Positions 1 to 39,569 of a DNA stretch of 64,000 nt are shown here, piece after piece. Numbering within the stretch: position 1 is the first letter of the stretch; the number at the start of each line of letters is the position of its first letter. Below the pieces are notes generated by a model. That model ran no database searches. It was not told where the DNA came from and saw nothing but the letters and a program-made list of their open reading frames with translations. Position numbers and translations under genes: made by a program. The DNA is from Methanobacteriota archaeon (GTDB taxonomy: Archaea; Thermoplasmatota; Thermoplasmata; SG8-5; JAGLSY01): positions 1 to 64,000 of the forward strand of contig JAEHCO010000005.1 of assembly GCA_020697715.1 (NCBI GenBank), in the 5' to 3' direction.

Positions 1-443
<443 letters not shown>

Positions 444-19054: not shown

Positions 19055-19096
19055 TATAATGAATATTATTAGAGAATCAATAAAGGAGGGTAGTTG

Positions 19097-20284
19097 ATGA
19101 GATACGAACTAGACCCGGTAAGAGTGAGAAAGATCTTGGGAAATAAGAAACAATTCATAATGGGAGATATGGCGATCGCATACGGTGGTCTTCTGGCAGG
19201 AGTGGGATTCTTCGGAGGATATCCGATCACACCAGCCAGTGAGGTCGCGGAAGGTATGGCCCGTATGCTCCCGAGGGCAGGCGGAACCTTCATTCAGATG
19301 GAGGATGAGATAGCCAGTATGGCAGCGATCATAGGAGCAGCGTGGAGCGGTACGAAGACAATGACCGCGACATCTGGTCCAGGTTTCTCATTGATGATGG
19401 AGAATTATGGATACGCGATAATGACCGAAACACCATGTGTCATTGCCAATGTCCAGAGGACAGGTCCATCAACTGGCCAGCCAACACAGGGTGCCCAGGG
19501 AGATATGCTTCAGACAAGATGGGGAAGTCATGGTGACATGATGGCCATCGCACTCTGCCCAAGCACGGTCCAAGAGTGCTTGGACATGACAATAGAGTCT
19601 TTCAACCTTTCCGAGAAATACAGACATCCAGTCGTTCTTCTGGCAGATGGAGAAGTCGGTCACTTGAGAGAAAAAGTGGTCATCCCAGATGTTGACGAGA
19701 TGGAGCTCTTCGAAAGAATTGAAGCTACTGTTGACAAGGACAAGTTCATACCATACTCAGAATCTCAGACGAATCCTGGAAGCAAAGTTCCGGATTTCCC
19801 AACCTTCGGCTCTGGATACAGATCGTATGTCACTGGCCTCACGCACAATGACATGGGATTCCCGGCAACTGATAAGCAGCCGGACCATGAGAGACTCATA
19901 AATCGTCTGGTCTCCAAGATCACGGACGATCGTGAGAAGCTCACTGATGTTGAAGAGATAGAGCTGGAAGATGCGGAAGTCGTCTTCGTCACATATGGAG
20001 CATCCGCCAGACCAGCAGAGAGCGCGGTCAGGATGGCACGTGCGAAAGGCATCAAGGCAGGAATGCTTAGATTGAAATTAGTATGGCCTTTCCCAGAGAA
20101 GGCCATTTACGACCTTTCCAAGAAAGTGAATAAGATAATAGTTCCAGAGATGAGTCTTGGCCAGATGGTTCATCCGATCAGGGAGTTCGCGGCCAAGGAT
20201 TGCGAAGTTATTGTAGCTCCAAAGGTCGGTGGAGTGATGCACCTTCCAGTTGAGCTTTTAGAATATTTAGAGGAGGGAGCTTAA
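19097..20284 (+). CDS. korA: 2-oxoacid (2-oxoglutarate-type):ferredoxin oxidoreductase alpha subunit
   Basis: GYPITPASE, QMEDEIAS, ATSGPGFSLM, QRTGPSTG. Confidence 0.92.
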   Translation: MRYELDPVRVRKILGNKKQFIMGDMAIAYGGLLAGVGFFGGYPITPASEVAEGMARMLPRAGGTFIQMEDEIASMAAIIGAAWSGTKTMTATSGPGFSLMMENYGYAIMTETPCVIANVQRTGPSTGQPTQGAQGDMLQTRWGSHGDMMAIALCPSTVQECLDMTIESFNLSEKYRHPVVLLADGEVGHLREKVVIPDVDEMELFERIEATVDKDKFIPYSESQTNPGSKVPDFPTFGSGYRSYVTGLTHNDMGFPATDKQPDHERLINRLVSKITDDREKLTDVEEIELEDAEVVFVTYGASARPAESAVRMARAKGIKAGMLRLKLVWPFPEKAIYDLSKKVNKIIVPEMSLGQMVHPIREFAAKDCEVIVAPKVGGVMHLPVELLEYLEEGA

Positions 20285-21162
20285 TGGCGGACATGATAAG
20301 TCAAGCAGAGATGCGCGAGAAATACCTAAGAAAGGGCATGCTGCCAACCATTTTCTGTAATGGTTGCGGCCATGGTTCCTCGCTGGACTACACCTTCAGA
20401 GCGATAGAGGAATTGGGATTGGACCTGGATGATATAGTATTCGCATCAGGTATCGGATGTTCCTCACGTATCCCCGGATACATCAATGCAGATGGATTGC
20501 ACACCACACACGGCAGGTCATTGGCCTTCGCTACAGGGGTTAAAGCTGCAAATCCAGATCTGAATGTTGTTGTCTTCAGTGGAGACGGAGATGCGACTGG
20601 CATAGGAGGAAATCACTTCATCCATGCTGCCAGGCGTAATATCGATATGACTGTGATCATCCTCAACAATTTCATTTATGGAATGACTGGTGGCCAGGTG
20701 GCTCCAACATCACCAAAGGGTACGATCGCGACCACCGCACCGTACGGAAACCTTGAGGGTGCATTTGATATCAGTGAATTGGCGAAATCATTGGGAGCGG
20801 CATACGTGGCCAGATGGCCGGTCTTCTACCCACAACAACCGATCAAATCCATTAAAGATGCTATCTCGACCAGAGGTTTCTCCCTGGTAGAGCTTATGTC
20901 ACCATGCCCAACAGCATACGGCAGAAGGAACAAGCTCGGGAACATAAAGAATCTCTGGGATTGGTATGAGAACAATTCCGTACTTGCAGAGGAATATGAT
21001 AAGATCATGAACTATGGAACCGATGAAGAGAAAGCTGCAACCATTAACAAGATCAAGATAGGTGTGTTCCAGCATACGGAAAAAGTTGGTTTCTTCGAGG
21101 CCTATGAGGAACAGATAAAGAATCTGATGGCAAATGATGACAAGAAATGGGGAGGTGTATAG
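20284..21162 (+). CDS. korB: 2-oxoacid:ferredoxin oxidoreductase beta subunit (TPP-binding)
   Basis: FCNGCG, SGIGCS, HTTHGR, GDGD...NN, YGMTGGQ. Confidence 0.92.
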   Translation: MADMISQAEMREKYLRKGMLPTIFCNGCGHGSSLDYTFRAIEELGLDLDDIVFASGIGCSSRIPGYINADGLHTTHGRSLAFATGVKAANPDLNVVVFSGDGDATGIGGNHFIHAARRNIDMTVIILNNFIYGMTGGQVAPTSPKGTIATTAPYGNLEGAFDISELAKSLGAAYVARWPVFYPQQPIKSIKDAISTRGFSLVELMSPCPTAYGRRNKLGNIKNLWDWYENNSVLAEEYDKIMNYGTDEEKAATINKIKIGVFQHTEKVGFFEAYEEQIKNLMANDDKKWGGV

Positions 21163-21163
21163 G

Positions 21164-21706
21164 ATGAAAAAGGAAATTCAGGTAGCGGGATTCGGTGGCC
21201 AGGGAGTTATTCTTTCCGGTTTCATTATCGGAAAGGCCGCATGTGTCTTTGCAGACCTCAATGCGGTGCAGAGCCAGTCCTACGGTCCAGAGGCAAGAGG
21301 AGGAGCAGCAAAGACAGCTGTTATTATCTCTGACGAGACCATCGGATACCCAAGACCAACAAGCATCGATGTCTTTGTCGCAATGGCTCAAGAGGCCTTC
21401 AATTCATACCTTCCAGACTGCCGTGATGATACGGTCTTGATCATAGATCCTGACCTTGTCACACAGAGCGATGTAGGAAGACCAATTTACAAAGTAAGAG
21501 TTCAGAAGATCGCGGAGGAACTTGGAAACAAGATCGTCACCAATATCGCGATGGTCGGTGCACTGACCGGAATATATGACCTTGGTGTACCGGATGAGGC
21601 AGTCAAGCAGGCGGTCATAGACAGTGTTCCAAAGAAGTTCATGGAACTGAATATCAATGCCTTTGAAAAAGGCCTCGAGGCGGGTAAGAATGCAAGACCA
21701 GAATGA
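21164..21706 (+). CDS. korC: 2-oxoacid:ferredoxin oxidoreductase gamma subunit
   Basis: AGFGGQGV, SYGPEARGG. Confidence 0.92.
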   Translation: MKKEIQVAGFGGQGVILSGFIIGKAACVFADLNAVQSQSYGPEARGGAAKTAVIISDETIGYPRPTSIDVFVAMAQEAFNSYLPDCRDDTVLIIDPDLVTQSDVGRPIYKVRVQKIAEELGNKIVTNIAMVGALTGIYDLGVPDEAVKQAVIDSVPKKFMELNINAFEKGLEAGKNARPE

Positions 21707-24700
21707 ATATTTCGAGCAGTACTACGAGGAAGTCGATCTTCATGATGATTATCTCATGATCCCTCCAGAGCTCGCGCTCTTGGAAGCCGAGGAAAATGAG
21801 ATCGAAGTGAAAAAGGACGGTCTCGCAAAGAATAAGCTGGCTGCAGGCAGAAGGATAAACGGAGACGTGCTGATAGTGGGAGCTGGCATATCGGGTATGC
21901 AGGCTGCTCTGGACACAGCGGACAAGGGATATCGTGTTATTCTGATAGAGAAATCTTCCACGATAGGCGGGAACATGGTCAAACTTGACAAGACCTTCCC
22001 GACAAATGACTGCTCCATATGCACGGCGGCCCCCAAGATGGTGGAAGTATCCAGACATCCGAACATCACTCTGATGACCTATGCGGATGTCATGTCACTT
22101 GAAGGTGAGAAGGGAGACTTCACGGCTCACATATACAGGAAATCTGCCTATGTAGATCCAGATGTCTGTACCGGTTGCGGAGATTGCGCAACTGCCTGTC
22201 CAGTCGAGGTCATAAATCCTTTTGATGACAAGCTGTCAAAGAGAAAAGGAATATCCATCGAATTCCCACAGGCTGTACCAATTGTATATTCCATAAACTA
22301 TGATAATTGCGTCGGATGCGGCTCTTGCGAGAGAGTGTGCGATGCAGGTGCGATCTCGTTCCTCAGGAAATCCGAGGACATTGAGGTCAAAATAGGCAGT
22401 GTGATAGTCGCAACTGGCTATGATCTATTCGAACCTCTGGAAATGAGGAAGGAATACGGTTATGGAAAGTATCCGAATGTCATAACCGCGATGCAGTTCG
22501 AGAGGCTTTTATCTTCTTTCGGTCCAACCGAGGGCAAGATACTGAGACCCTCTGATGGAACAGCACCCAAGTCAATTGGCTGGATACAATGCGTCGGATC
22601 CAGAAGCAAGCAGCTTGGTTTCCCATATTGTTCCAGGGTTTGCTGTATGTACGCGACCAAGGAAGCGGCCATAACTAAGGAGATCGACGATAGCCTTGAA
22701 GTTACAATTTTCTACATGGATATCAGAGCTTATGGAAAGGATTTCCAGCAATATTATGACAAAGCCAAGGACATGGGCGTGAATTACATCCGTGCCAGAC
22801 CATCCTCCGTGTATCAGAACGAGGATGGAAGTATCGCTGTAAGGTACATGGACACCCATACAAGGGAAATACTGGACATGAACCTCGATATGCTGGTGCT
22901 TTCCACGGCCATCATGCCATCAAAACAAAATCCGAAACTGGGCAAAGTGCTCGGTATCGGTGTGGATCATAATGGATTCTTTGAATCCGGCTCTATTGTC
23001 TCAGACCCGATACAAACCACAAGAGATGGAGTGTTCCTGGCCGGCTGTAATCAAGGCCCGAAGGATATTCCAGACAGTGTGGCGATGGCCAGCGGAGCAG
23101 CCGCAAGAGCCGTCGAGGCCATTGTGGAGAGAGAGAAAGCAGATGCGGTCAAACCACCGGAACAAAAGGATGTGTCTGGTGATAAGCCAAAGATCGGTGT
23201 CTTCGTCTGCCATTGTGGAAAGAATATCAATGGCTATCTTGACTGCGCGGATGTCGCGGATACCGTCCGTGATGACCCGAATGTGGAATATTCCACAGAT
23301 GTTATGTTCGCCTGCTCTGAGGATTCACAGACCGATATTAGGAAGACCATCGAGGAAAAAGGTCTCAATCGTGTGATAGTCGCGGCTTGTTCACCGATCA
23401 CTCATGGCGGTCTGTTCCAGGATACTCTGGAAGAATCTGGCCTTAATAAATATCTATTTGAATTTGCCAATATCAGACAGCATTGCTCCTGGGTCCATTC
23501 CCATGATAGGGAGAAGGCCACCCAGAAAGCGAAAGACCTTGTGAGGATGGGTATTTCCAAATCCGTGCTTCTTGAGCCATTGAGCCAGGAAGAGGTGGAT
23601 GTCATACCTGTCACGGTCATCATCGGAGGAGGCATCGCGGGCATGAAAGCCGCAATGGCACTTTCCGATATGGAGATCGAGACACATATCATCGAGATGG
23701 GTGACAAGCTTGGTGGAAATCTGAATAAGCTTCACAGTCTATTCCCCACAGAGCTTGACCCAAGCCAGCTTGCCAATGAAATGCGGACGAAGATCGAGGC
23801 ATCTGACTACATCAAGGTTCACCTCAATACCACATTGGAGAATGTTGAGGGATTCATCGGCAATTTCAAGGCATACATGAAGAGCCCAGGCGGAGATTCC
23901 GAATTAGAATTCGGAACAGCCATCATCGCATCTGGCTTTGGAGAGATAGACATGGCCGGGAAATACGGCTATGGAAATAATCCGAAAATAATGACCCAGA
24001 TGGAATTGGAAGGCCGCCTCATAGCGGATGACCTTGAAAAACCAAAGTCCATCGTGATGATCAACTGTGCCGGAGCCATGGATGAAGAAAGACCGTGGTG
24101 CTGCAGGATAGGTTGTGGCGTGTCCATTAAGAATGCCAAGCTTCTGAAAGAGAAGTATCCGGATGCGGAGATCAATATCCTTTACCGGGATATACGTGTC
24201 TTCGGCAAAGAAGAGGAAGAATACTTCGCCGATGTCATCGAGAACATGCACGTGAAGATAACAAGGTACTCGGATGTGGAGAAACCACAAGTCGTCATCA
24301 ATGATGATGGATCTGTCATGGTCAAGGTAAGGGATCAGATATACAATGACGAGATGGAATTATCTGCAGATCTACTGGTACTCACTGCCCAGACAGAAGG
24401 AAGCGAGTCCACGGACAAACTCCAGCAGATGTTCAAGATACCTGTTGGACCCGGACATTTCTTCATAGAGGCGCATGCCAAGATCAGACCGCTGGATTTC
24501 GCAACAGATGGTGTTTACTTCTGTGGAAGCGCGCATTTCCCCAAGAACCTGGCAGACGCTATCGCCCAGGCCGAGGGAGCCGCATCAAGAGCCGCCATTC
24601 CGATAATGAAACAGAGACTGGTATTGGAAGGTATAACCGCCATAGTCGAGCCAGATATGTGTGTTGGCTGTGGAATTTGCGCAGAGGCATGTCCCTTCGG

Positions 24701-24863
24701 AGCCATTGATCTTATCAAAGGCAAGGCCGTGGTAAATGAAGCACTGTGCAAAGGTTGTGGATTATGCAATGCCACCTGTAGATCTGGAGCTATACAACAG
24801 AAAGGCTTCAATGATCATCAGATACTCAGTATGATCAAAAGCTCATTGAACGAGGTGTTCTAG
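21690..24863 (+). CDS. hdrA: Heterodisulfide reductase subunit A-like, two tandem FAD modules
   Basis: GAGISG..KLDKTFPTNDCSIC, IQCVGSR..CSRVCC, second module IGVFVCHCG..GGGIAG..CCRIGC, C-terminal ferredoxin; start uncertain (21690 or 21756). Confidence 0.92.
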   Translation: MQDQNEYFEQYYEEVDLHDDYLMIPPELALLEAEENEIEVKKDGLAKNKLAAGRRINGDVLIVGAGISGMQAALDTADKGYRVILIEKSSTIGGNMVKLDKTFPTNDCSICTAAPKMVEVSRHPNITLMTYADVMSLEGEKGDFTAHIYRKSAYVDPDVCTGCGDCATACPVEVINPFDDKLSKRKGISIEFPQAVPIVYSINYDNCVGCGSCERVCDAGAISFLRKSEDIEVKIGSVIVATGYDLFEPLEMRKEYGYGKYPNVITAMQFERLLSSFGPTEGKILRPSDGTAPKSIGWIQCVGSRSKQLGFPYCSRVCCMYATKEAAITKEIDDSLEVTIFYMDIRAYGKDFQQYYDKAKDMGVNYIRARPSSVYQNEDGSIAVRYMDTHTREILDMNLDMLVLSTAIMPSKQNPKLGKVLGIGVDHNGFFESGSIVSDPIQTTRDGVFLAGCNQGPKDIPDSVAMASGAAARAVEAIVEREKADAVKPPEQKDVSGDKPKIGVFVCHCGKNINGYLDCADVADTVRDDPNVEYSTDVMFACSEDSQTDIRKTIEEKGLNRVIVAACSPITHGGLFQDTLEESGLNKYLFEFANIRQHCSWVHSHDREKATQKAKDLVRMGISKSVLLEPLSQEEVDVIPVTVIIGGGIAGMKAAMALSDMEIETHIIEMGDKLGGNLNKLHSLFPTELDPSQLANEMRTKIEASDYIKVHLNTTLENVEGFIGNFKAYMKSPGGDSELEFGTAIIASGFGEIDMAGKYGYGNNPKIMTQMELEGRLIADDLEKPKSIVMINCAGAMDEERPWCCRIGCGVSIKNAKLLKEKYPDAEINILYRDIRVFGKEEEEYFADVIENMHVKITRYSDVEKPQVVINDDGSVMVKVRDQIYNDEMELSADLLVLTAQTEGSESTDKLQQMFKIPVGPGHFFIEAHAKIRPLDFATDGVYFCGSAHFPKNLADAIAQAEGAASRAAIPIMKQRLVLEGITAIVEPDMCVGCGICAEACPFGAIDLIKGKAVVNEALCKGCGLCNATCRSGAIQQKGFNDHQILSMIKSSLNEVF

Positions 24864-25292
24864 ATGACGGATGATAATTTCGAGCCGAAGATAATAGGAT
24901 TCCTGTGCAACTGGTGCTCGTATACAGGAGCGGATCTGGCTGGTGTATCACGTATCCAGTACCCTTCAAACATTCGTATCATCAAGGTCATGTGCTCTGG
25001 TCGTGTCAATCCACAGTTCGTGCTCAAGGCTTTCCAAGAAGGAGCGGATGGGGTTCTTGTTTCAGGATGCCACCCAGGTGATTGTCATTATATCGAGGGT
25101 AATTACCACGCCCGCCGAAAGCTGACAATGCTCTCAGATATTCTTGAATTCACAGGCATCGAGCCAGAGAGATTCCAGATGTCATGGGTATCTGCCTCGG
25201 AAGGTAAGAAGTTCGCCGAGATCGTGACCGCCTTTACAGAGCAGGTGAAGGAACTTGGACCCCAGAAGAAACTTGCTGGAGGTGAGAAGTAA
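24864..25292 (+). CDS. mvhD: MvhD-like [2Fe-2S] subunit
   Basis: FLCNWCSYTGAD, VMCSGRV, GCHPGDCHY. Confidence 0.93.
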   Translation: MTDDNFEPKIIGFLCNWCSYTGADLAGVSRIQYPSNIRIIKVMCSGRVNPQFVLKAFQEGADGVLVSGCHPGDCHYIEGNYHARRKLTMLSDILEFTGIEPERFQMSWVSASEGKKFAEIVTAFTEQVKELGPQKKLAGGEK

Positions 25293-26299
25293 TGGTCGAT
25301 TACAATGCAATGACCCTGGATATACGCGCCAAGGCAAAGGCAATGCTTGAGAACAAAGAGGTCAAGTACATCATTGGCTGGGAAAGAGGTGCTAATTCAT
25401 TCATATCCAGGCCAGTGATCATAAGGGATGCAGGCGACACGGACAGGCTGGTATGGAATCCAGGTTGCGTGGACAATCTTACCAGATACCTTGTTGAGGA
25501 AATGCAGTACAAGCCCAAGAGGGGGGAAGAACCAGACCTCAGCCCGGTTGGTATCATTGTGAAGCCATGCGACTCTAAATCAATTGTCGAACTTATCAAA
25601 GAAAATATCGTGCCCCGAGAGAGGGTGAAGATCATCGCTGTAACAAATATTGGCACAGTGGAAACTAACAAGCTCAGAAAAATCCTTCAGAAGATACCAC
25701 AGGACAAAAGAGCGGGCATCGATATCTTACAGGATGATAATGAGTTCACTATCAAGTATGAAGGCGGGGAACTGAAAGTTCCGCGACCGGAATTATTAGC
25801 CAATAAATGCGAAACATGTGTCACACACAATCCAGTGATACACGATGTCGTCATTGGCGATAAGATCGAAGGCTTCGAAAAGGATGAATGGGCAGATGTG
25901 GCCGAGCTGGAAAATATGAGCCCGGAAGAAAGATGGAAATTCTGGGAAGCACAGATATCCAAATGCGTGAGATGTTACGCTTGCCGCGATTCATGTTCAC
26001 TATGCTATTGTGCAGAGTGCGTCTTCGACAAGGAGAAACCATTCACCTGGATCGATAAAACTGTAGATGTGAGCAATAATATGTTCTACCATCTGGTCAG
26101 AGCGATGCATCTGGCAGGTAGATGTGTAGATTGCGGTGAATGCGAGCGTGTTTGCCCGGTGAACATACCAATCAGGAAGCTCAATCGCCTTCTTTTGAAG
26201 AGTGCGAAAGATCGATACAGGATATACCCAGGTATGAATCCAGAGGACAAGCCGATGTTCGGAAGCTATGACATTGCAGACCCAGATGAGGTGGTATGA
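25292..26299 (+). CDS. FlxC/D-like [4Fe-4S] protein
   Basis: KPCD, CVRCYACRDSCSLCYC, HLAGRCVDCGECERVCP. Confidence 0.8.
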   Translation: MVDYNAMTLDIRAKAKAMLENKEVKYIIGWERGANSFISRPVIIRDAGDTDRLVWNPGCVDNLTRYLVEEMQYKPKRGEEPDLSPVGIIVKPCDSKSIVELIKENIVPRERVKIIAVTNIGTVETNKLRKILQKIPQDKRAGIDILQDDNEFTIKYEGGELKVPRPELLANKCETCVTHNPVIHDVVIGDKIEGFEKDEWADVAELENMSPEERWKFWEAQISKCVRCYACRDSCSLCYCAECVFDKEKPFTWIDKTVDVSNNMFYHLVRAMHLAGRCVDCGECERVCPVNIPIRKLNRLLLKSAKDRYRIYPGMNPEDKPMFGSYDIADPDEVV

Positions 26300-26440
26300 A
26301 TGCGAGAACAAAGTGATTGCATTCAAAAGCTTGAGGGAACCGAGAGGTTCGGAATGGGTTCGTTACTACTCACCATTCATCTCGAAGTTTCCAAATTTAT
26401 GGAAACTTCCCATGCGTCTTTCATTCAGGAGGTGAAATGA
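26300..26440 (+). other. Multi-hairpin junction insert that is also a 46-aa open frame
   Basis: Four stem-loops; ATG directly after upstream TGA, and its TGA overlaps the next gene's ATG. Confidence 0.6.
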
Positions 26441-27471
26441 TGGCGGAAATGATCATCAAGAAAGTAAGAGTGGATGGCCTATTCGAAGCAATGAAAGGCA
26501 AGGATGTCTATGCTCCTGTTACAGAAGATGGCATAAGCAGATTCAAACTTGTGGATGGCACTCCAAACCTTAAATTCAAAAATTCAAGAAAGCCACCAAA
26601 GGAAGCTTTCTTCCCCCAGACCGAGAAGATGTTCGATCTGGTCAAGGATGGAACGCGATTCGTCGGAGCAAAGGATGTTCCATCTCGTGACAAAGATATC
26701 GTCATGTTCGGAATAAGACCCTGCGATGGACGTGCCTTTAATGTTCTGGACGAATTGTTCAACTGGGACTACAAGGATCCTTATTATCTGGACAAAAGGG
26801 AGAAGGCCACGGTCATAGGACTGGCCTGCACCTTGCCAGAGATGCCGAATAACAATTGCTTCTGCACATCCATGGGTGGCAGTCCGGGATCCAGCGAGGG
26901 AATGGACATGCTCTGGGTGGACATAGGAGATTCTTACTATGTCGAGTCTCTTAATGATAAAGGCAATGCCATATTGGAACTTGGAAAAGGCATATTCGAG
27001 GAATCTGGCGATGATATAAGATCATCGGCTGGAAAGGCAATAGAGGATGCCGCCAATGCCATTGATCGTAAGCTGGACACAGACGGAGTGCGTGATGCAC
27101 TCGCCAAGACCTTTGACAATGATTATTGGGCCGAGTTCTCCAAGAGATGCATGGGATGCGGCATATGCACCTTCCTGTGTCCGACCTGCCATTGTTTCGA
27201 TATACAAGATATCGTAAAGAATGGCGAAGGCGTGAGACAGAGAACATGGGATTCCTGCCAATTCGACTATTACAGCATACATGCTTCAAATCATAATCCA
27301 AGGCCAGAGAAAAAGAACAGACAACGCAACCGTGTTTATCACAAGTTCTACTATTCGGAGAATAAACTTGGACTTGTTGGATGTGTCGGTTGCGGAAGAT
27401 GTATCAATCTCTGCCCGGTGAATATCGATATAATTGAAGTGATCCAAGGCGCGAAGGAGTTGGGCCAATGA
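26437..27471 (+). CDS. FlxB/AsrA-like [4Fe-4S] subunit
   Basis: FGIRPCD, CFC, CMGCGICTFLCPTCHCF, RTWDSC, CVGCGRCINLCP. Confidence 0.85.
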   Translation: MMAEMIIKKVRVDGLFEAMKGKDVYAPVTEDGISRFKLVDGTPNLKFKNSRKPPKEAFFPQTEKMFDLVKDGTRFVGAKDVPSRDKDIVMFGIRPCDGRAFNVLDELFNWDYKDPYYLDKREKATVIGLACTLPEMPNNNCFCTSMGGSPGSSEGMDMLWVDIGDSYYVESLNDKGNAILELGKGIFEESGDDIRSSAGKAIEDAANAIDRKLDTDGVRDALAKTFDNDYWAEFSKRCMGCGICTFLCPTCHCFDIQDIVKNGEGVRQRTWDSCQFDYYSIHASNHNPRPEKKNRQRNRVYHKFYYSENKLGLVGCVGCGRCINLCPVNIDIIEVIQGAKELGQ

Positions 27472-29348: not shown

Positions 29349-29358
29349 TTCAGATTGC

Positions 29359-29934
29359 TTACCAATTCTCTGCCAGCATTTCGAAATATTTCTGATCGTG
29401 CTTGCAAGCTGGGCATATCTGGGGTGCTGCCTCTGCTTCTGTTATGTAACCGCAGTTGATGCATCTCCAGACTGTTGGCTCGGACTTTTTGAAGACTGTT
29501 CCAGCTTCGATGTTCTTGATGAATCCGAGGTATCTGTCCTCATGTTGCTTCTCTGCCACGGCTATTGCTCTCATGACAGCCGCAACCTCTGGGAAGCCCT
29601 CTTCGTCAGCGATCTTGGCGAAGTCCGGGTACATCTCGGTCCACTCGTGGTTCTCGCCCTCGGCCGCGGCCTTCAGGTTCTCCACAGTAGTGCCTATTGA
29701 GCCTGCAGGGAATGCTCCTGTGATCTCACACTCTCCGCCCTCGAAGAACTTGAACAGCCTCTTAGCATGCTCCTTCTCCTGATTCGCGGTCTCCTCGAAG
29801 GCCAGTGATACCTGCACGTATCCCTCTTTCTTGGCCACTGCAGCCCAGTAAGTGTACTTGTTCCTTGCCTGTGACTCACCTGCGAAGGCGGCCATTATGT
29901 TCTTCTCTGTCTGTGTTCCTTTTAGACTTGTCAT
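29359..29934 (-). CDS. rbr: Rubrerythrin
   Basis: [35 protein letters not shown]. Confidence 0.96.
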
Positions 29935-29936
29935 TA

Positions 29937-30365
29937 CTATTCCTCCATATCGATATCTATACTTTTATCATTAATGTAATTGCCGAATTTCACATCTTCG
30001 CCCTTGATGTGATTTACAAGCCAGTTCAGAAGAAAAGTGTTTATGGAGTCTGCCAATGATCCGGTTGCTCCCTCTTCCTCAAAATCCTCTTCCAATTGCT
30101 TTATGACCCCGATGAACTCCGCGTGCATCTTTTTCTGCTCCTCTAATCCAGGATAGGCATATTTGGCCATTTGCTTCTCTTCATCAGCAAAGTGGAAGTT
30201 CGTGTATTCGAACATGAACTCCAGTGATTTCAATATCTCACTGGCTCCCTGTGATGTCTCGACTGCCTTTGATAATTGAGCCAGTCTTTGTATCAGGGTC
30301 TTGTGCTGTTCATCAACAATATCAATACCCACTGCCAGACTTTCATCCCATTCTATACAAAACAT
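29937..30365 (-). CDS. Bacteriohemerythrin
   Basis: VGIDIVDEQH, HFADEE, H, WLVNHIKGED. Confidence 0.92.
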   Translation of the reverse strand: MFCIEWDESLAVGIDIVDEQHKTLIQRLAQLSKAVETSQGASEILKSLEFMFEYTNFHFADEEKQMAKYAYPGLEEQKKMHAEFIGVIKQLEEDFEEEGATGSLADSINTFLLNWLVNHIKGEDVKFGNYINDKSIDIDMEE

Positions 30366-30435
30366 ATCTATTTCCTCCTTTTCAAGTCGCAAATTTGTTT
30401 GCAATCACTTAGTTCTCGCAATCAATCAACTCCTA

Positions 30436-30618
30436 TCATTCCAGGACAACAGCGCCTACCGGGCAGCTGGCCTCACATGCTCCGCATTCAATACAGGAAT
30501 CTGAATTGACCACATGGGCCTTTCCATCTTTTATCTCAAACACATTGGGATCGCCTGGACATACATCAAAGCAATCCCCGGCTCCCTCACAAACATTCAT
30601 GTCAACTTTCGGTGGCAT
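30436..30618 (-). CDS. Ferredoxin ([3Fe-4S]/[4Fe-4S])
   Basis: CEGAGDC..CP and CIECGAC..CP. Confidence 0.9.
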   Translation of the reverse strand: MPPKVDMNVCEGAGDCFDVCPGDPNVFEIKDGKAHVVNSDSCIECGACEASCPVGAVVLE

Positions 30619-30720
30619 TCTATTCACCCTGAGAGTTCATTGAGGTTATACTTATATATCTTGCCCCTCAAGAATGAGGGGCGATCATAAAGAACCTGGA
30701 GGTTATTTTAATTTTTACTT

Positions 30721-31623
30721 TCAGATGACCAGGTCATCCATGTTCACAAAGGAAACCTCTTCCATATGATGTGGATGATATCTTTGCTTTGCCTTTCTGA
30801 GGCCTGCCTTCCCAAGATCTGATTCGCGATTAATGAACTTGAAATCTTTGACCAATATCTTGGCGGCCTCCTGATTGATCACCTGATATATTCCATCGAA
30901 CTCGGGCATTGCCTTCTCGTAATGAACGATAGCTGTGTCATCGTTCATTGCCTCGAAGACCGAAAGACCTTCTATATTACCATCTATTCGAATGATGATC
31001 CCTTTCAGGTCAAGCTCAAAAAGCAGATCCATTGATACTTTCAAAGCCTCAGCCTCTTCAGCAAGTATGGGATCCCCAGAGCAGTTCTTCCACTGGCACC
31101 ATCTTTTTAGAAATTCCATAACTTCTTCAAAATTATTCTGGGAAACTTCCTTGATCTCATAATTATGCCTTCTCTTGAACTTGCTTATTCGGGATCTCAT
31201 CTTGGCATAATTGCCACCTTCAAGCTTATCGAGATCGGAAGCCAGATATGTATAATCGAAATAATCCTCATTGAGTGTGAATTTGATCTCCGGGAAATAT
31301 TTGGAAATCCACTCGATCTCATCATTTTGGACAGCGACCAGTGGTCTTTCTCCCCCGTGCTCCTTGGCCATCTCGACCAGTTTTGTCAGGACATCAGGGT
31401 CTCTTGCGCCATGAGGAAGTCGGAAGAACACCTGCCCACCCATTTTGCTCATATGAAGCAGATCATCACCAACAAAATGATAATAATAATCTGTATGATG
31501 CTTCCAGGATATCATTGTGGAAAAAAGCTTTTCAGAATGTGATACTGGATACTTGGCATAATGCTTGTCGAATTCCTCTTTGGAATCCATCGTGATATCC
31601 TTGAAATCGTCTATTGTGAACAT
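30721..31623 (-). CDS. DUF2156 (LPG synthase C-terminal/GNAT-like) domain protein
   Basis: DYTY..DL..L.G, HYEKA..GIYQ, INRESDLG..GLRKAK..YHP. Confidence 0.85.
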   Translation of the reverse strand: MFTIDDFKDITMDSKEEFDKHYAKYPVSHSEKLFSTMISWKHHTDYYYHFVGDDLLHMSKMGGQVFFRLPHGARDPDVLTKLVEMAKEHGGERPLVAVQNDEIEWISKYFPEIKFTLNEDYFDYTYLASDLDKLEGGNYAKMRSRISKFKRRHNYEIKEVSQNNFEEVMEFLKRWCQWKNCSGDPILAEEAEALKVSMDLLFELDLKGIIIRIDGNIEGLSVFEAMNDDTAIVHYEKAMPEFDGIYQVINQEAAKILVKDFKFINRESDLGKAGLRKAKQRYHPHHMEEVSFVNMDDLVI

Positions 31624-31629
31624 GCAATT

Positions 31630-32064
31630 TCACTCCTTGTTATTGGTCTCGCCCTTGTACAGCATTGGCTCACCATCAAAATTATTGAAGCCTATTTTCT
31701 CATAGAATGGTCGAGAACCCTGCTCGGCTATCAAGCCGATCCATCCGATACCGTGTTTCTTGAGATGTGCCACCAGTGCATTGATTATCATACTGCCGAT
31801 ACCCAATTTTCTCAGATCCTCTCGAACTGCCACATCCTGAATATAAGCATCCGAAACACCATCCGATATCGCCCTGCCCATTCCAACAGCAGTTCCAGAC
31901 TTTCTGTCCACGGCAATGGCGAAGGCAAAACTGCCTTTGATCAGCAGATCAACACCTTCTGGATCATATTCATCCTTCCACCAGCCTCCGACCTTGTAAA
32001 GATCGACTATCTCATCCAGAGGCCAGGACGTGACCATTTCAACTTGAATATCCTGCTTTTCCAA
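31630..32064 (-). CDS. GNAT family N-acetyltransferase
   Basis: VGMGRAISDG..AYIQDVAV..R..GIG, FYEKIGF. Confidence 0.9.
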   Translation of the reverse strand: MEKQDIQVEMVTSWPLDEIVDLYKVGGWWKDEYDPEGVDLLIKGSFAFAIAVDRKSGTAVGMGRAISDGVSDAYIQDVAVREDLRKLGIGSMIINALVAHLKKHGIGWIGLIAEQGSRPFYEKIGFNNFDGEPMLYKGETNNKE

Positions 32065-32082
32065 TCAAACACCATCCGATGA

Positions 32083-32676
32083 TCATTTCAATATTTCGTA
32101 AAATTCCTCGATTGGCATGGTAGCCAGATGCCTGCCCAATTTGTCAAATATCTCCTTGAACTCTGGAAGAGCATGCGATACCTCATGTGCTTCTTTGGAT
32201 TCCCAAAAGGTCACTAGTATGTACTTCAGTGGCTCGATCTTCATATCCGTCAGATCCCCTGGTAGGAAACTCCCAATGGCGGACATGCCATCCACCCTCA
32301 GGACCTTGGATCCAAGAAAACCATCCATGCTCTCTGTGGCTCTGCATAATTGCATTGCCTGGGACATGAAATCACCCTCCTCCCCAGGTCTCAAAGATAT
32401 GAAGTTCAGGGCGCAGATTATCGGCCTGCCATCGGTCTCATAGGAGTTCTGCTCCTCCAATGTAAGGACCTGTGACTCGATGCCCATATCCTCAAGCCTT
32501 TGCTGGCCTATCCTGGATCTATGCATGGTATTGCAGGCCAGCTTGACATCCTTGTCCTTCAGGAATTCCTCATGGAATATCAGATCATAATGGGGTATGT
32601 TGAAAGCACCCTTGATATGTTCTCTAACAAATTCCTCTCGCGATCTCACATCGATTATTATCTCAGACTTGCTCAT
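32083..32676 (-). CDS. Rhodanese-like domain fused to ABM-type (monooxygenase-fold) domain
   Basis: IIDVRSREEF..HIKGAFNIP..C...RS; C-terminal GFLGSKVLR..YILVTFWESKEAH. Confidence 0.75.
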   Translation of the reverse strand: MSKSEIIIDVRSREEFVREHIKGAFNIPHYDLIFHEEFLKDKDVKLACNTMHRSRIGQQRLEDMGIESQVLTLEEQNSYETDGRPIICALNFISLRPGEEGDFMSQAMQLCRATESMDGFLGSKVLRVDGMSAIGSFLPGDLTDMKIEPLKYILVTFWESKEAHEVSHALPEFKEIFDKLGRHLATMPIEEFYEILK

Positions 32677-32683
32677 AATATCA

Positions 32684-33211
32684 CTACATGAATCTTTCAA
32701 AGCGTTCCTTCGTCGCCTTGCATATCGGGCATACTGGAGGGGGATCGTCCCTTGCAGCCAGATAGCCGCAGACCTTGCATCTCCAGACAGGATAGGCAAG
32801 TCCAGAGGGTGCTTCCGCCCCACTCGCTTCATCTTCCTGAACTGGGATCTGGGCCTTCTCGATCTTCCTTTCTGAATAGGATGGTCTTCTGTCTGGTATT
32901 GGTTCTGGTTGGGCGTCGCCACGCTTTATCTCATCCGAGACATAAAGCGCGCAATAGCAGGCTCCGAACTCATTGAGATCCGCATCCCGGTAATCGCAGG
33001 GGCAGACGATGTCCAGATCATCCGCTTTATCGCCATCGGCCAGCCTACACGGGCATGCCCAATATCCGTAAGTCTCTTCATTGATCAGCAAGCCCTCGAT
33101 GAGCTCTTTCACGAAGTCCGTATCTGGACTTAGGTGATAGCCGAATTTTTCAGCATCCGCATCCAGTTTCTTGAATGTAGTTTCGATCTTTTCTGGAGGA
33201 ATATCACTCAT
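32684..33211 (-). CDS. Ferredoxin:thioredoxin reductase catalytic subunit fused to rubredoxin-like domain
   Basis: CPCR, CPC, CYC; C-terminal WRCKVCGY..CPIC. Confidence 0.9.
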   Translation of the reverse strand: MSDIPPEKIETTFKKLDADAEKFGYHLSPDTDFVKELIEGLLINEETYGYWACPCRLADGDKADDLDIVCPCDYRDADLNEFGACYCALYVSDEIKRGDAQPEPIPDRRPSYSERKIEKAQIPVQEDEASGAEAPSGLAYPVWRCKVCGYLAARDDPPPVCPICKATKERFERFM

Positions 33212-33483
33212 ACGCCAAGGGCCTCCTTGATCTCTTCCTCTTTGAAGCCCACTATGCATATCTCGTCCCTGATGACCAGTGTGGGGAATGAGGTGCGCTC
33301 ATTCCACTTTGCCACTTCCTTGATACATGCCTCGCGGGCCTCCCCGGCCAGCTTGTCCACGAACTCAACTTCATAGGCAACTCCCAGTTCATTCAGTAAA
33401 TTCTTCGTTTTCTTGCACCAGCCACATGTGCTGAGTGCGTACAATACGACTTTCCCCTTGTCAATTCCATCAACATGTTCCAT
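33208..33483 (-). CDS. Glutaredoxin/NrdH-like redoxin
   Basis: YALSTCGWCKKT, SFPTLVI, IVGF. Confidence 0.9.
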   Translation of the reverse strand: MEHVDGIDKGKVVLYALSTCGWCKKTKNLLNELGVAYEVEFVDKLAGEAREACIKEVAKWNERTSFPTLVIRDEICIVGFKEEEIKEALGV

Positions 33484-33567
33484 AATCATCACTCCTAAAT
33501 TTGTACTCTATCATATATTATCGATAGATAATCTTGGTTCAGGTATATATTTACAACCCCTGTTGAA

Positions 33568-34185
33568 TCAATCTTCTTTAAAGCGCTTCAGCCTAAACAC
33601 ATTCTCACGCTCAAGCTCTTCCAGCCTCATCATGATCATGTTTTCCGCAGTCTTCAACTCTGGTATAACTTTGAACTCCAGCGCATTAACTCTCCTCTTG
33701 GTTCCAGATATCTCTTCCAAGAGCTTCTTCAACGTGGTCTCTATCTCGGCGGCCCTTACAATTTCCTCCACCAGTTCCTCATAAGCTTCCGCTGCTTCAT
33801 CGATCCTGGTAGATGTGCCTATCAGACCATAACCGCGCTCGTCAATTCGCTTTCTGACCTTCTCGCCCTTGATCTTCGGAACAACAACACCCATCACGTT
33901 CTTCGTGTACAGGGAGATGGTTGGAACTTCAGCGGCTGCAAACGCCGCTGACCTCACTCCCATCTCACCTTCCACTGCTTCGGCGATGGCCAGCTTCCGC
34001 TCCGCGGTCGTGCATTTGTACATGATGCTACCGCGAACCTTTTTCGCCTCCTCCAGTATCTCGAAGAATTCAAGAATTAGCCCATCTCTCTTTTTCTTGA
34101 GAAGGTCGTAACCTTTCTCAGAGAATTTGATGCGCTTCTTGACATCGAGCAGTTCGGATCTTGTTGGTTTGAATTCCCTGGCCAT
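33568..34185 (-). CDS. atpD: A1Ao ATP synthase subunit D
   Basis: KPTRSELL, LLKKKRDGL, TKRRVNALE. Confidence 0.96.
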   Translation of the reverse strand: MAREFKPTRSELLDVKKRIKFSEKGYDLLKKKRDGLILEFFEILEEAKKVRGSIMYKCTTAERKLAIAEAVEGEMGVRSAAFAAAEVPTISLYTKNVMGVVVPKIKGEKVRKRIDERGYGLIGTSTRIDEAAEAYEELVEEIVRAAEIETTLKKLLEEISGTKRRVNALEFKVIPELKTAENMIMMRLEELERENVFRLKRFKED

Positions 34186-34244
34186 GTGTTGTTTCCTCTT
34201 TGTTTTATTTTATTTAATTATATTTGATCTTGTCATTTCAATTA

Positions 34245-35633
34245 TCACAGCTTACTTGGTTTTTTATGCGCTGGGTGATAGGCATTTATGATCTTATTAT
34301 CGATCTTCGTAAGAGAAGCCTCTGGTATGTGGGACAGTAGATCCCAGCATATACCCAATGTCTCCTCGATCGGCCTATCATCCTCATATCCCTGCCTGAC
34401 AACTTTATCCTCGAAGCCATCCGCGAAGTCCAGATATTTTCTGTCAGCTTCGGATAGAGCTTCCTTTCCAATTATGGACACCAGTGATCGCAGGTCTTTG
34501 CCATTAGCGTATACCGCGTAACACTGATCGGATACCGCTTTGTGATCCTCACGCGTCATGCCCTTTCCAATACCGGAATCCATCAGTCTTGACAATGATC
34601 CAGATATATCGATAGGTGGGTAGATACCCTGCCTGTGCAGATCTCTTGAAACGATGATCTGGCCCTCGGTGATATACGCACTCAGGTCAGGTATCGGATG
34701 TGTGATGTCATCATCCGGCATGGAAAGAATTGGGATCTGTGTTATGGTACCCTTTCTTCCCTTTATCCTGCCCGCTCGCTCGTACATGGTGGCAAGATCG
34801 GTGTACATGTAACCCGGATATCCTCTCCTGCCAGGAACCTCTTCCCTGGCAGCTCCTATCTGCCTCAAGGCCTCGCAATAGTTCGTTATGTCTGTTAGAA
34901 TGATCAGGACGTGCATGTCGAGATCGAAAGCCAGATATTCGGCGGCTGTCAATGCCATCTTCGGTGTGATAAGACGCTCAATTGTTGGATCATTGGCCAG
35001 ATTCAGGAACACGACCGATTTCTTGATCGCACCAGTTCTCTCGAACTCCCTCATGAAATGCTGTGCTTCCTCATTGGTGATACCCATGGCTGCAAATACC
35101 ACAGCAAATTCCTCTACTTCGGCCAACACCTTCGCGTTCTTGGCTATCTGAAGCGCGATGTCATTGTGCGGAAGACCGCTACCAGAGAAAATTGGAAGTT
35201 TCTGGCCTCTCACCAAAGTGAACATACCGTCTATCGTGGATATGCCAGTCTGAATGAATTCCTTTGGCTTCTCACGAGCATAAGGATTGATAGCTCCGAC
35301 AATTATCTCTTTCTTTTCTTTGGGTATGATCGGTGGCCCGCCATCCAATGGCTGGCCAGCACCGCTCAGGATCCTGCCTATTATATCGGGTGAAACACCC
35401 AGCTTCACAGTCTCTCCCAGGAATTTCACGGTCGAATTCCTGTCGATACCGTCAGTTCCCTCGAAGACCTGGACAACCACCATGTCTTTTGAAGTATCAA
35501 GGACCTGGCCTCTCTTCCTGCTTCCATCGGAGAGTGTGATGTCCACTATCTCGCCATAGCCCACATGCTCTGTTTTCTCGAGGAAGACCAGGGGGCCAGC
35601 TATCTCCGTGATAGTTCGATATTCTTTTCTCAT
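34245..35633 (-). CDS. atpB: A1Ao ATP synthase subunit B
   Basis: [37 protein letters not shown]. Confidence 0.97.
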
Positions 35634-35689
35634 TGTGAATCCCTCCACTTCGCTACGGGCTTATCAATGCGCTCCTTGCAGTCGCTCAT
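35630..35689 (-). other. 19-aa bridging open frame with hairpin between atpA and atpB
   Basis: [23 protein letters not shown] overlaps at both ends. Confidence 0.55.
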
Positions 35690-37476
35690 TGATTCACCTC
35701 TTTGAGTTTCTCCACCTTACTGGATGGTTCAGCTTCTCCTCTCATGTCCGTGCATTCGCCCATCATGCAGTCCATGACCTTTTTCAATTCTGCATCGAAC
35801 TCGGGTTCGTATTTGACCTTCGCAAGGTCGTCCTTGGATTTCATGGACATTATCTTCGTGATCGGCACACCTACTGAAAGCAGGTCCATTGAATCATCAT
35901 TGAACTTCTTGATACAATCAATTAAATTCTCCTGTCTGGATGGTTTACAGAAGGTGTCCACATCGTGGAATGCATTTTGCTGAAGGAAGTATTCTCTCAA
36001 CATCCTGGCCACCTCGAGCAACACACGCTGATCATCCGGTAATGCATCGGCTCCAACGAGCTGAACTATCTCCTGTAACTCGGCTTCTTTCTGGAGAACT
36101 CCCATAGCCCATTTTACCTTGCTGGACCAATCTTTGTCCACATTCTCACTGAACCATGGGTCCAATGACTGTGAATATAAACTATATGAATTCAACCAGT
36201 TGACAGCAGGGAAATGCCTTCTTTCCCTGAGCTTGGTATCCAGAGCCCAGAAGACCTTGACGATCCTCAATGTGGCTTGCGTAACTGGTTCGGAGAAATC
36301 CCCACCCTGTGGAGATACAGCCCCGATAACAGATACCGAGCCTTCCTTTCCATTGAGCCCGCTCACACGGCCAGCTCTCTCATAGAAAGCGGATAATTTG
36401 GATGACAGGTAAGCTGGATATCCTTCTTCCCCAGGCATTTCTTCCAGCCTGGAGGATATCTCTCTCATCGCCTCGGCCCATCTTGATGTTGAATCAGCCA
36501 TCAGTGCGATATCATAGCCCATATCACGATAATACTCGGCCATCGTGATACCTGTGTAAACTGAAGCTTCTCTTGCAGCCACTGGCATATTGGAGGTATT
36601 GGCTATCAGGATCGTCCTGTCCATAAGAGGAGCACCTGTCTGCGGATCCTCCAGTTCGGGGAATTCCTTGAGCACATCGGCCATCTCATTGCCCCTTTCA
36701 CCACAGCCGACATATACGACCATGTCCGCGTCACTCCACTTGGCCAGCTGATGCTCGGTGACTGTCTTCCCAGTTCCGAATCCACCTGGAATTGCAGCAG
36801 TTCCGCCCTTGGCTATCGGGAAGAAAGTGTCCAGAACCCTCTGACCTGTGATAAGTGGTATATCGGGTGCGAGTTTTTCCACGATCGGCCTGGGGTTTCT
36901 AACTGGCCAATTGTGATACATCTTCAACTTATCGCCACCGTCCAGTGTTGCGATTATCTCATCGATATTGAAATCTCCACCCTTGATATCCGTGATCGTG
37001 CCAGATATTCCAGGGGGCACCATGATATAATGCTTGATATTCTTGGATTCCTGAACCCAGCCAATTATCGAGTTCGGAGATACTTCATCGCCCACATTGG
37101 CTGTTGGATTGAATGTCCATATCTTTTCGTGATCCAGACCAGGTACATTGACCCCTCTCTCAATGATGTCACCCATCTTCTCCTGAAGCACTTCCAGGGG
37201 TCTCTGAATTCCATCATATATGCTTGTCAGAAGCCCGGGCCCGAGTTCCGCAGTCAATGGCTCGCCGGTATCCGTAACTGGCTCACCTGGGCGGATACCC
37301 GAGGTATCCTCATAGACCTGGATGATGCTCTTTTCTCCAATTATCTGGATAACCTCTCCCATCAGCTTTTCCTCGCCGACGAATACCACATCAAACATCC
37401 TAGGCTCTATGCCAGTTACCGTGACCACAGGACCTGCAACCCTGAAGATCTCACCTGTTCCTTTCTCTTCGCTCAT
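35686..37476 (-). CDS. atpA: A1Ao ATP synthase subunit A
   Basis: [37 protein letters not shown]; no intein visible. Confidence 0.97.
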
Positions 37477-37480
37477 TCTT

Positions 37481-37783
37481 TCATCCTCCTTTGAATAGAT
37501 CAATTCCAATAACTCTCTTAACTTTCTCTCTCAGGTCGCTCTCTTCTTCTCTGCCAACAGCGACAACGACCGGGCTGACGGATGCCAAGAATTTTCTTCT
37601 GGACTCTTCCGACAGCGATTGAAGGGACGAGTTGTGTATCACCACGATTCCAACATCCTCATCCTGCATAATCTCATTAAGTTTATTTTCGATATCCACA
37701 TCATTCGCGACATGGATCTTTCTGATACCAACAAGCTGATAGCCCAGCACGAAATCATTTGTACCCAATACAGCCAGTTCCAT
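37481..37783 (-). CDS. atpF: A1Ao ATP synthase subunit F
   Basis: LAVLG...[20 protein letters not shown]. Confidence 0.93.
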
Positions 37784-37900
37784 TCAGACCATCTCCTGTA
37801 TCGAGGATGGTGTAAAATGAAATGCTTTTATCCATTTCATTCAGACCATCTCCTGTCGGGGATGTTGTAAAATGAAAAATATCTTGATGTTTTTCATTCA
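37781..37900 (-). repeat. Two 57-bp tandem units, each an 18-aa open frame with hairpin and RBS, between atpC and atpF
   Basis: cattcag at 37781, 37838 and 37895; units read MKNIKIFFILQHPRQEMV* and MKWIKAFHFTPSSIQEMV*. Confidence 0.85.
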
Positions 37901-39552: not shown

Positions 39553-39569
39553 TTGCTAACCTCTTTCAT

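Follow-up and report, generated by a model that had tools for sequence, protein, structure and literature searches.

Introduction

How can a short repeated sequence settle directly in front of the start codons of genes and be tolerated there? The question is raised by a 64,000-nucleotide stretch of archaeal DNA (contig JAEHCO010000005.1 of assembly GCA_020697715.1, positions 1-64,000, forward strand), hereafter the window. In it, a preliminary description had pointed out five junctions between co-transcribed genes at which small, mostly hairpin-forming inserts can be read as mini open reading frames (ORFs), each leading from the stop codon of one gene to the start codon of the next. All five mini-ORFs were found at these positions with the ends ascribed to them. 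The flanking genes could be identified as subunits of pyruvate:ferredoxin oxidoreductase (POR), as HdrA-like, MvhD and Fe-S proteins, as ferredoxin and hemerythrin, and as subunits C, F, A and B of an A-type ATPase.

The reading that we favour, with a probability of roughly 0.6, is that the element behind these inserts is a lineage-restricted, modular hairpin repeat that rebuilds the ribosome-binding site (RBS) of the gene in front of which it stands and that resembles the interspersed repetitive units of mycobacteria (MIRUs); we infer that it spreads as DNA. To place the element, the genome of origin (G000; 2.12 Mb, 94% complete) was compared with four draft assemblies of relatives (G001-G004; completeness 74-94%), the five genomes together representing family f1: four of them, G000 included, belong to one genus and the fifth to a sister genus. 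Genes of G000 were called with a simple in-house ORF scorer and the calls are crude.

Architecture and folding of the repeat unit

The basic unit measures about 56-57 nt and is composed, in order, of a first hairpin (hairpin A), a weak second hairpin (H2) with a new Shine-Dalgarno (SD) sequence, 5-8 further nucleotides and the start codon. The outer stem of hairpin A reads TTGAATG/CATTCAA; its 5′ arm is made up of the upstream stop codon followed by an ATG (TGA-ATG...CAT-TCA), and this ATG lies at start-codon distance from the old SD of the gene. One form of hairpin A, called H1 (TGAATGC-GAGARCNAAGYGATT-GCATTCA), is present in full in 25 copies in G000, and these copies, together with those recovered by the covariance model described below, bear out the proposal of a small palindromic element family. 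Its core, GCGAGARCNAAGYGATTGC, is found twice in the window against none expected from shuffles, and the (RE.)SDC start that three mini-ORFs had been observed to share is the translation of this conserved core.

In 15 of the 25 H1 copies the start codon follows at a distance of 28-34 nt, the interval being H2. An H2 profile recovers about 34 copies in G000, each immediately 5′ of a start codon; upstream of them stands a hairpin A with one of several unrelated inner sequences, the TTGAATG/CATTCAA outer stem being kept in most. The stem of H2 differs among copies without losing its complementarity, and the 3′ half of the SD (...GAAATGAAATGGAGGnnnn) forms its 3′ arm. Further hairpin modules can be stacked between hairpin A and H2, so that the spacers are mosaics, and units also occur in tandem.

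Both hairpins covary strongly. Specifically, in an alignment of 30 canonical units, 18 from G000 and 12 from the relatives, 96.1% of cells are paired and 14 of 18 pairs are changed on both sides (66 cells), a level that is reached by none of 500 column shuffles, while slid controls pair in just 29-41%. The outer 5′ arm tracks the upstream stop codon, of which TGA, TAG and TAA versions exist, and the 3′ arm compensates. The inner GAGA...GAU core is invariant, and one G-U pair is retained in 29 of the 30 units, an indication that it is the sense strand that folds, be it as RNA or as a single strand of DNA. The mean minimum free energy (MFE) of the units is -16.7 kcal/mol (hairpin A -11.0, H2 -4.6), with a mean z of -3.5, and at least three of the five SD nucleotides are paired in 24 of the 30 units.

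The unit has no counterpart in Rfam. A search of the window against Rfam 15 gave no match at the gathering score except rRNA and tRNA, with chance-level matches (E 0.7-1.5) near the elements. A kink-turn, a box C/D motif or a riboswitch was rejected for hairpin A, since its internal loop is, on inspection, symmetric (GAGA versus GAU(U) around a 2-bp stem), unlike a kink-turn with its 3-nt bulge, and has no Rfam match. An alternative helix between the 3′ arm of hairpin A and the loop of H2 could form in 84% of cells; as it shows a single covarying pair, it remains speculation.

Position, orientation and downstream genes

A covariance model of the two-hairpin unit, R1, was used for genome searches and yields 41 matches in G000, 33 of which are listed and were analysed for position. 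The next gene lies on the same strand in all 33. The ATG of the model coincides with a called start in 24 of them and with the start of two small genes that had escaped calling, RpoP and L39e, in two more; the rest are composites with extra modules 5′ of the start. Upstream lies a co-directional gene in 25 matches and a divergent one in 8, the latter being leader copies in front of L10e, S8e, L3, S15, NAC, GlnA and other genes. The placement at stop/start junctions originally described is therefore correct in that such junctions are occupied, and too narrow in that the element belongs to the RBS-to-start interval rather than specifically to operon junctions. None of the 33 lies in a convergent spacer or antisense to a gene. 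As random insertion followed by selection would predict neutral copies of this kind, the placement looks targeted.

The downstream genes are a mixed group, comprising L39e, L16/L10e, S8e, L3, S15, RpoP, NAC, RlmE, GlnA, a thiolase, IOR-alpha, hydrogenase subunits, a NuoE-like protein, a transketolase, TldD/PmbA, PaaK, pantoate kinase and HerA; 6 of 29 scanned have no family. This mixture argues against a single riboswitch ligand. In the GlnA leader, which lies outside the window (contig C30, 69355-70851 region), H1 is accompanied by more modules, one of which is open and in frame, and the longest ORF gains about 28 residues before the GlnA-family region.

Distribution across genomes

The element is confined to a narrow lineage. 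In a comparison covering 41 relatives, the exact core has 13-32 copies per genome in the four genomes of the genus and 2 in the sister genus, and is essentially absent elsewhere. R1 has 51, 34 and 63 matches in the three other genomes of the genus and 22 in the sister genus. It has none in four genomes from families f2 and f3; in family f4, 4 of 13 genomes have 1-4 matches each. At E<=1e-4, among 151 genomes sampled in the class, matches are limited to the five of family f1, the other 146, from 28 further families, having none. When the core was searched in 185,579 species genomes, multi-copy occurrence among the matches listed was seen solely in three archaeal metagenome-assembled genomes ('Methanobacteriota archaeon', 'Thermoplasmata archaeon'); single matches among those listed fell in one ANME-1 and one ANME-2 genome (anaerobic methanotrophic archaea) and, at chance level, in bacteria. 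The repeats break draft assemblies, and in two relatives many matches are found no more than about 400 nt from the end of a contig. No account of start-codon-proximal hairpin repeats in archaea was found in open-access full text; the available part of PMC12306157 mentions REP-like (repetitive extragenic palindromic) sequences in archaea in general terms only.

Turnover between relatives and duplication at junctions

G003 is syntenic with the window region, in long aligned blocks of 81-92% identity, and provides the empty orthologous sites that had been anticipated in relatives. At its ferredoxin/hemerythrin junction the full 60-nt insert is missing (TAGGGGTTGAAAAATATG), and its atpA/atpB junction is nearly empty, being without insert and carrying just a 9-nt tandem duplication (CCAAATGAG twice), where G000 has a 56-nt insert flanked by two copies of CAATGAG. 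At position 26300 both genomes have H1 and the modules that follow differ. The hdrA/mvhD junction, empty in G000, has in G003 a module of about 100 nt that is the same as G000 26352-26434; a blastn-short search of the G000 genome found no other copies of the 85-nt module 26352-26436.

The same picture emerges from the 12 H1 sites of G003, which were sorted against G000 by BLAST anchors and sequence reading. Four are empty in G000, one carries a 200-nt composite insert missing from G000, two (three with the ambiguous locus L121) have a different hairpin A or another repeat in G000, two differ in unit or module number, and one is identical in kind. In the L10e leader, G002 lacks the unit, G001 has another hairpin, G000 one unit, G003 two units and G004 other hairpins. 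The comparisons made show the opposite of copies maintained at the same genes across both genera. In empty/filled pairs the insert begins right after the old SD or stop codon and extends to the start codon, a few bases being replaced at times.

Duplication of the junction upon insertion, as originally suggested, is seen in local events and is not a property of the dispersed family. Among the local events, atpC/atpF has two units in G000, one in G003, none in G002 and none in G001 and G004, and both units of G000 end in GGAGATGGTCTGA, as does the empty site; atpA/atpB has been described above. At hdrA/mvhD of G004 (locus L114, contig C79, about 6120-6330, minus strand) a 17-nt direct duplication (ATCAGGTGATTGAAA(A)TG) surrounds a 25-nt insert with a small palindrome, an SD and a 13-codon bridging ORF, which looks like a nascent junction element. 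Finally, contig C29 of G000 (143413-143518, minus strand) has about 2.5 tandem 37-nt units, each ATG...CTGA, that form a chain of TGATG-coupled mini-ORFs, and the orthologous junction of G003 holds an H1 unit instead. For the dispersed family a target-site duplication was considered and rejected: upstream and downstream flanks of the same copy agree at 9.5 of 19 positions against 9.65 for non-self flanks (permutation p 0.76), and a likeness no higher within copies reflects generic RBS similarity.

Two further differences between the genomes were noted. In G003 an H1 unit (L126, G003:C33:92200-93700, at about locus position 784) forms an in-frame fusion with the downstream gene, the original ATG of which has been replaced; if translated it would add an N-terminal extension of 17 residues, or else a later ATG is used. 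Such repeats can thus mislead start-codon calling. In addition, G003 is about 9 kb longer just downstream of atpD (window 33563; G003:C48:37765-46838), owing to an insertion or a deletion.

Bridging reading frames

The shuffle test of open spacers that had been proposed returns an excess. Specifically, 60 of 563 co-directional spacers of 15-200 nt are bridged by an ORF, against 31.2±4.8 (maximum 44) in 300 rounds of mononucleotide shuffling, and with ATG starts only the figures are 46 against 15.8±3.3 (maximum 26). Spacers with an H2 match are bridged in 12 of 24 cases, against 2.1±1.1 in shuffles, and the other 539 in 48, against 29.3±4.5; part of these 48 are probably small real genes missed by the caller.

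The 25 H1 units of G000 comprise 11 that bridge (2 via TTG only), 6 with an early stop, 3 that run on, 3 without a start codon, two of which are leader copies, and 2 that stop just inside the gene. Nine of the 12 canonical units from the relatives bridge. In each of the other two frames 1 of the 25 H1 copies would do so; as the copies share ancestry, this comparison counts as about one observation per hairpin family. Open frames, to which attention had been drawn, thus occur at about twice the shuffled level, but the openness is not obligatory, given that 11 of 25 H1 copies bridge. The encoded peptide, in turn, is not conserved and the base pairing is: changes that compensate within the stems rewrite the peptide or delete it or its start, and the peptide itself is accordingly not under selection. 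A microprotein function is unlikely.

Weighing the explanations

The element is gained, lost, swapped and amplified among close relatives, and under the favoured reading of a MIRU-like repeat its insertion would be tolerated because the unit rebuilds the ribosome-binding site. In about half of the copies a short relay ORF would lead from the upstream stop codon, or from the old start position, to the new start, and ribosomes on this ORF would open both hairpins and reach the true start. The mini-ORFs would thus be translated, with a net effect on expression that we expect to be small. A search for sequencing runs gave no RNA run, and a single DNA run in which the share of words was 0.06. Of the original interpretation, this reading retains the hairpin family, the junction sites, the empty sites and the excess of open frames, and drops junction duplication as a general feature, obligatory openness and the link to an enzyme.

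Several observations weigh against it. The intact bridging ORF is missing from 14 of the 25 H1 copies, so that tolerance cannot in general be put down to relay translation. A stop codon at the end of the relay frame was considered as a mark of selection and discarded, for the background already predicts it: a stop at -8, -5, -2 or +1 in that frame is present in 62% of 1038 SD-bearing genes, and 46% begin with ATGA. A mobilising enzyme was not found with the Y1_Tnp, TnpB and GIY-YIG profiles searched, other transposase families not having been searched, and the dispersed family has neither a target-site duplication nor terminal inverted repeats that span the whole unit. Many downstream genes are likely to be highly expressed (five ribosomal proteins, RpoP, NAC, GlnA, hydrogenase subunits), which could reflect function rather than tolerance. 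The compensatory changes, the invariant GAGA/GAU core and the G-U pair kept in 29 of 30 units point to selection on a sense-strand fold, and with this a host RNA function agrees at least as well as a passive parasite does, if not better.

Such a host function is the main rival, and one that we regard as possible though clearly less likely. The element would then be a cis-regulatory RNA module, a natural 'bicistronic design', in which H2 closes the SD until a ribosome at the stop codon and ATG of hairpin A opens the fold; translation of the downstream gene would depend on that of an upstream gene or of a leader mini-ORF, so as to enforce coupling or tune subunit ratios. The covariation of both hairpins, the pairing of SD nucleotides in 24 of 30 units, the 5′ arm that follows the upstream stop codon with a compensating 3′ arm, the alternative pairing open to 84% of cells and the enrichment of bridging frames all agree with it, as does an SD-like motif read 5-10 nt 5′ of the ATG of hairpin A in about 26 of the 33 listed copies, leader copies included. 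According to the available part of PMC12548453, a spacing above 30-40 nt normally abolishes termination-reinitiation coupling, and for this reason a relay ORF would matter in such a module. However, in close relatives the same genes have no unit, one, two or unrelated hairpins, which is unexpected for a needed regulator; H2 is weak (-4.6 kcal/mol on average), 14 of 25 copies lack an intact relay ORF, the one covarying pair of the alternative helix comes from one subfamily, and the downstream genes follow no common functional logic. A second proposal, tentative and of much the same probability, would join mobility and use. That is, the element would be a self-spreading 'portable ribosome-binding cassette' that targets the SD-to-start interval in one direction without a classical transposase, and that the host uses as an insulator of the bicistronic-design type. 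Copying may proceed by recombination or template switching primed by microhomologies of SD and start codon, or via an RNA intermediate, and initiation at highly expressed and complex-subunit genes would come to depend on an upstream relay ORF. If true, the cassette would stand for a new class of mobile element, one whose target is a translational signal.

The next rival after the regulatory module, an improbable one in our judgement, is an mRNA processing or stability element, in which hairpin A would guard the 3′ end of the upstream cistron after a cut in an A-rich linker and the downstream fragment would begin near the RBS, the two cistrons thereby differing in half-life and translation. REP hairpins work in this manner in bacterial operons, and the layout of hairpin, A-rich single-stranded linker and RBS-proximal hairpin is suitable. 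In a methanogen, as far as the available text of PMC5499594 goes, processing sites are over-represented in 5′ untranslated regions and intergenic regions of ribosomal-protein operons, lie for the most part immediately upstream of RBSs and increase both stability and translation, and five ribosomal-protein genes carry the element in G000. Nonetheless, the signature given in that portion of PMC5499594 is a uridine that follows the cleavage position, in contrast to the A-rich linker of the unit, and the high turnover among relatives argues against a needed role. Mobilisation as a REP or REPIN (REP doublet forming a hairpin) by the single Y1 transposase of the genome, of the RAYT type (REP-associated tyrosine transposase), is more doubtful still. 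The repeats are indeed small, palindromic and mosaic like BIMEs (bacterial interspersed mosaic elements), and a conserved single-copy Y1_Tnp gene is present. But a transposase or nuclease flanked by the same hairpins, which the preliminary description had envisaged, did not turn up: no H1-like hairpins flank the Y1 gene, and the TnpB and GIY-YIG profiles gave no match. Of 22 genomes of the order 16, among them 7 of 7 high-quality ones, have the Y1 family, with no regard to the presence of the element and with element-free families included. It is usually single-copy (1-3 matches per genome) and was not found in two of the four element-bearing relatives, these two being incomplete drafts; it looks domesticated rather than an active insertion sequence (IS). 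Moreover, all 33 listed copies are in gene orientation and fixed at start codons, unlike REPs. Hardest of all to credit is that the mini-ORFs are chance readings or real microprotein genes. Shuffles alone do give 31 bridged spacers of 563, and the ORF at 19059-19097 lies in an unstructured spacer outside the family; against this stand the excess of bridging over shuffles and a peptide that is not conserved and that compensatory stem changes rewrite or deprive of its start.

Relation to known systems

The likeness to MIRUs is one of functional class: no sequence relation is expected and membership in that family is not claimed, the host being an archaeon and not an actinobacterium. Supply et al. 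(1997) is said to be the primary paper on MIRUs. In the available portions of the reviews PMC12548453 and PMC3184786, MIRUs are units of 40-100 bp, in 40-50 copies, that lie within polycistronic operons, show empty and filled sites and enter at start codons, where their ORF is coupled at -4. The archaeal element is likewise a short unit in tens of copies (about 56-57 nt; 41 in G000, 22-63 in relatives), set in gene orientation between operon genes at start codons (25 of 33 listed copies follow a co-directional gene); its orthologous sites may be empty or filled, its tandem copies vary in number, and its inverted repeats are internal. An ORF whose ends overlap or abut the neighbouring stop and start, as in MIRUs, is present in 11 of 25 H1 units in G000 and in 9 of 12 canonical units of the relatives, and in the remainder it stops early, runs on or lacks a start. 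Unlike MIRUs, it carries its own SD in a covarying hairpin and has interchangeable hairpin modules; a quarter of its copies precede first genes, in the leader, the ORF is kept in only about half, and the dispersed copies have no short direct repeats. If the favoured reading is true, elements of the MIRU type are not peculiar to mycobacteria, and an archaeon would have come to the same behaviour by a different design, based on hairpins, in which a repeat at the start codon is rendered harmless by a rebuilt RBS and a relay frame. A strict orientation and placement without recognisable transposase or target duplication also raises the question of how such elements find translation starts.

REPs, BIMEs and REPINs share with the archaeal unit that they are small palindromic mosaics, often intercistronic, lineage-specific, disruptive to draft assemblies and possibly active on mRNA stability. 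REPs, however, occur in both orientations, mostly after genes, and have a GTAG/CGTC head, as set out in the available part of PMC3733652. The archaeal unit has a fixed orientation and start-codon distance and includes the RBS, and the distribution of the Y1 transposase does not track it. Transposable elements of the miniature inverted-repeat type (MITEs) are known in archaea, including Sulfolobus and haloarchaea, and are, like the present element, short non-autonomous repeats with presence/absence polymorphism. The archaeal unit differs from them in that its hairpins are internal and terminal inverted repeats do not span it, in having neither a target-site duplication of fixed length nor a parent IS detectable by the three profiles searched (Y1_Tnp, TnpB, GIY-YIG), and in that all 33 listed copies fall within RBS-start intervals.

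In the bicistronic design, or leader cistron, as outlined in the accessible text of PMC12548453, a short upstream ORF with its own SD contains a second SD and ends in a stop codon that abuts or overlaps the main start, the logic being that translating ribosomes melt local structure and are delivered to the start. The archaeal unit has the same arrangement; the designs, though, are engineered or single natural leaders, while here it is a dispersed and variable repeat, many copies of which have no intact ORF. The units would provide natural, compact translation-coupling cassettes that could be tested in archaeal expression systems. Finally, the processing sites of the methanogen (PMC5499594, available part) resemble the element in their position just 5′ of RBSs, both in leaders and between cistrons, and in the prominence of ribosomal-protein genes; they are cleavage sites defined by RNA ends, whereas the archaeal element is repeated DNA and known from sequence alone.

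The junctions of the window

The features of the five junctions are collected in Table 1, together with two reference features. R1 matches three of the junctions, at 26291-26358, 30361-30430 and 35629-35698 (the last with E 1.1e-7). The pair of units at atpC/atpF is a purely local tandem repeat, whose 57-nt unit has no other copy in the G000 genome by blastn-short; in each unit one hairpin begins at the ATG and another, which contains an SD, ends in GGAGATGGTCTGA. The porD/porA spacer is an ordinary one, unstructured and outside the repeat family, and in G003 it is of like length between flanks 94-98% identical. What had been presented as one phenomenon therefore separates into three members of the class, one local tandem repeat and one ordinary spacer.

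Folding was assessed against 200 dinucleotide shuffles per site. Stem-loops had been noted at most junctions, and they stand out at three: at 26294-26440 (z -2.7, 0/200 shuffles as good), at atpA/atpB (35628-35700; z -2.7, 2/200) and at atpC/atpF (37778-37905; z -2.9, 3/200). The signal is weak at ferredoxin/hemerythrin (30360-30440; z -1.3, 19/200) and missing at porD/porA (19045-19105; z -0.6, 58/200).

Table 1. Coordinates of the junction features and of two reference features; positions refer to the window unless a contig is named.
Feature	Position	Strand	Details
16S rRNA, 3′ part	1-443		Marks the DNA as archaeal
porD/porA spacer	19055-19096	+	12-codon bridging ORF 19059-19097, TGATG out
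Hairpin A, type H1	26297-26325	+	TGAATGC-GAGAACAAAGTGATT-GCATTCA; 5′ arm is TGA of upstream Fe-S gene and ATG of mini-ORF
Bridging mini-ORF, 46 codons	26300-26440	+	TGA-ATG in, ATGA out
Added hairpin modules	26326-26436	+	Include 10-bp stem GAAGTTTCCA/TGGAAACTTC at 26384-26409; end in new SD AGGAGGTG, before ATG at 26437
Hairpin H2	30366-30395	-	Pairs part of new SD AAGGAGGAAAT, then spacer to ATG at 30365
Mini-ORF, 17 codons	30368-30421	-	TTG start after AGGAG; TAG 2 nt upstream of hemerythrin ATG
Hairpin A, type H1	30396-30424	-	Ferredoxin/hemerythrin junction
Bridging mini-ORF, 19 codons	35630-35689	-	ATGA at each end
Hairpin H2	35634-35663	-	New SD GGAGGGATT precedes atpB ATG at 35633
Hairpin A, non-H1 type	35664-35692	-	TCAATG-AGCGACTGCAAGGAGCG-CATTGA; atpA/atpB, 5′ arm contains ATGA overlap
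Two tandem 57-nt units, atpC/atpF	37784-37897	-	Mini-ORFs 37897-37841 and 37840-37784, 18 codons each, TGA-ATG chain
Y1 (IS200/RAYT-like) transposase	G000 C1:16359-16709	-	Adjoins a tRNA-like region

Other features of the window and its genome

A further bridging frame was noted in the ATPase operon, where a 17-nt spacer between two genes (39553-39569, minus strand) is spanned by a 6-codon ORF of the form TGA-ATG...ATGA, with no hairpin.

As to the organism, no McrA match was found in G000 (genome 94% complete); a methanogen or ANME identity was rejected on this ground, and the organism is probably neither a methanogen nor a methanotroph. Genes for HdrA-like proteins, MvhD and NiFe-hydrogenase are present in spite of this.

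The genome also harbours a second repeat family, of about 200-280 nt, which is represented in the window at 2991-3219 and elsewhere in G000 at C11:68164-68591, C11:160961-161404, C34:4726-5007 and about 25 other spacers. It is characterized by the GC-rich hairpins GCATGCCCCGTCTGGA...GGGCGGGGTACT and CTCCTCGC...GCGAGGAG, and includes a hairpin that resembles H1 (TTCGAGACGCAAAGCGATTCGAA). Its copies point in either direction and lie in spacers of all three kinds, convergent, divergent and co-directional.

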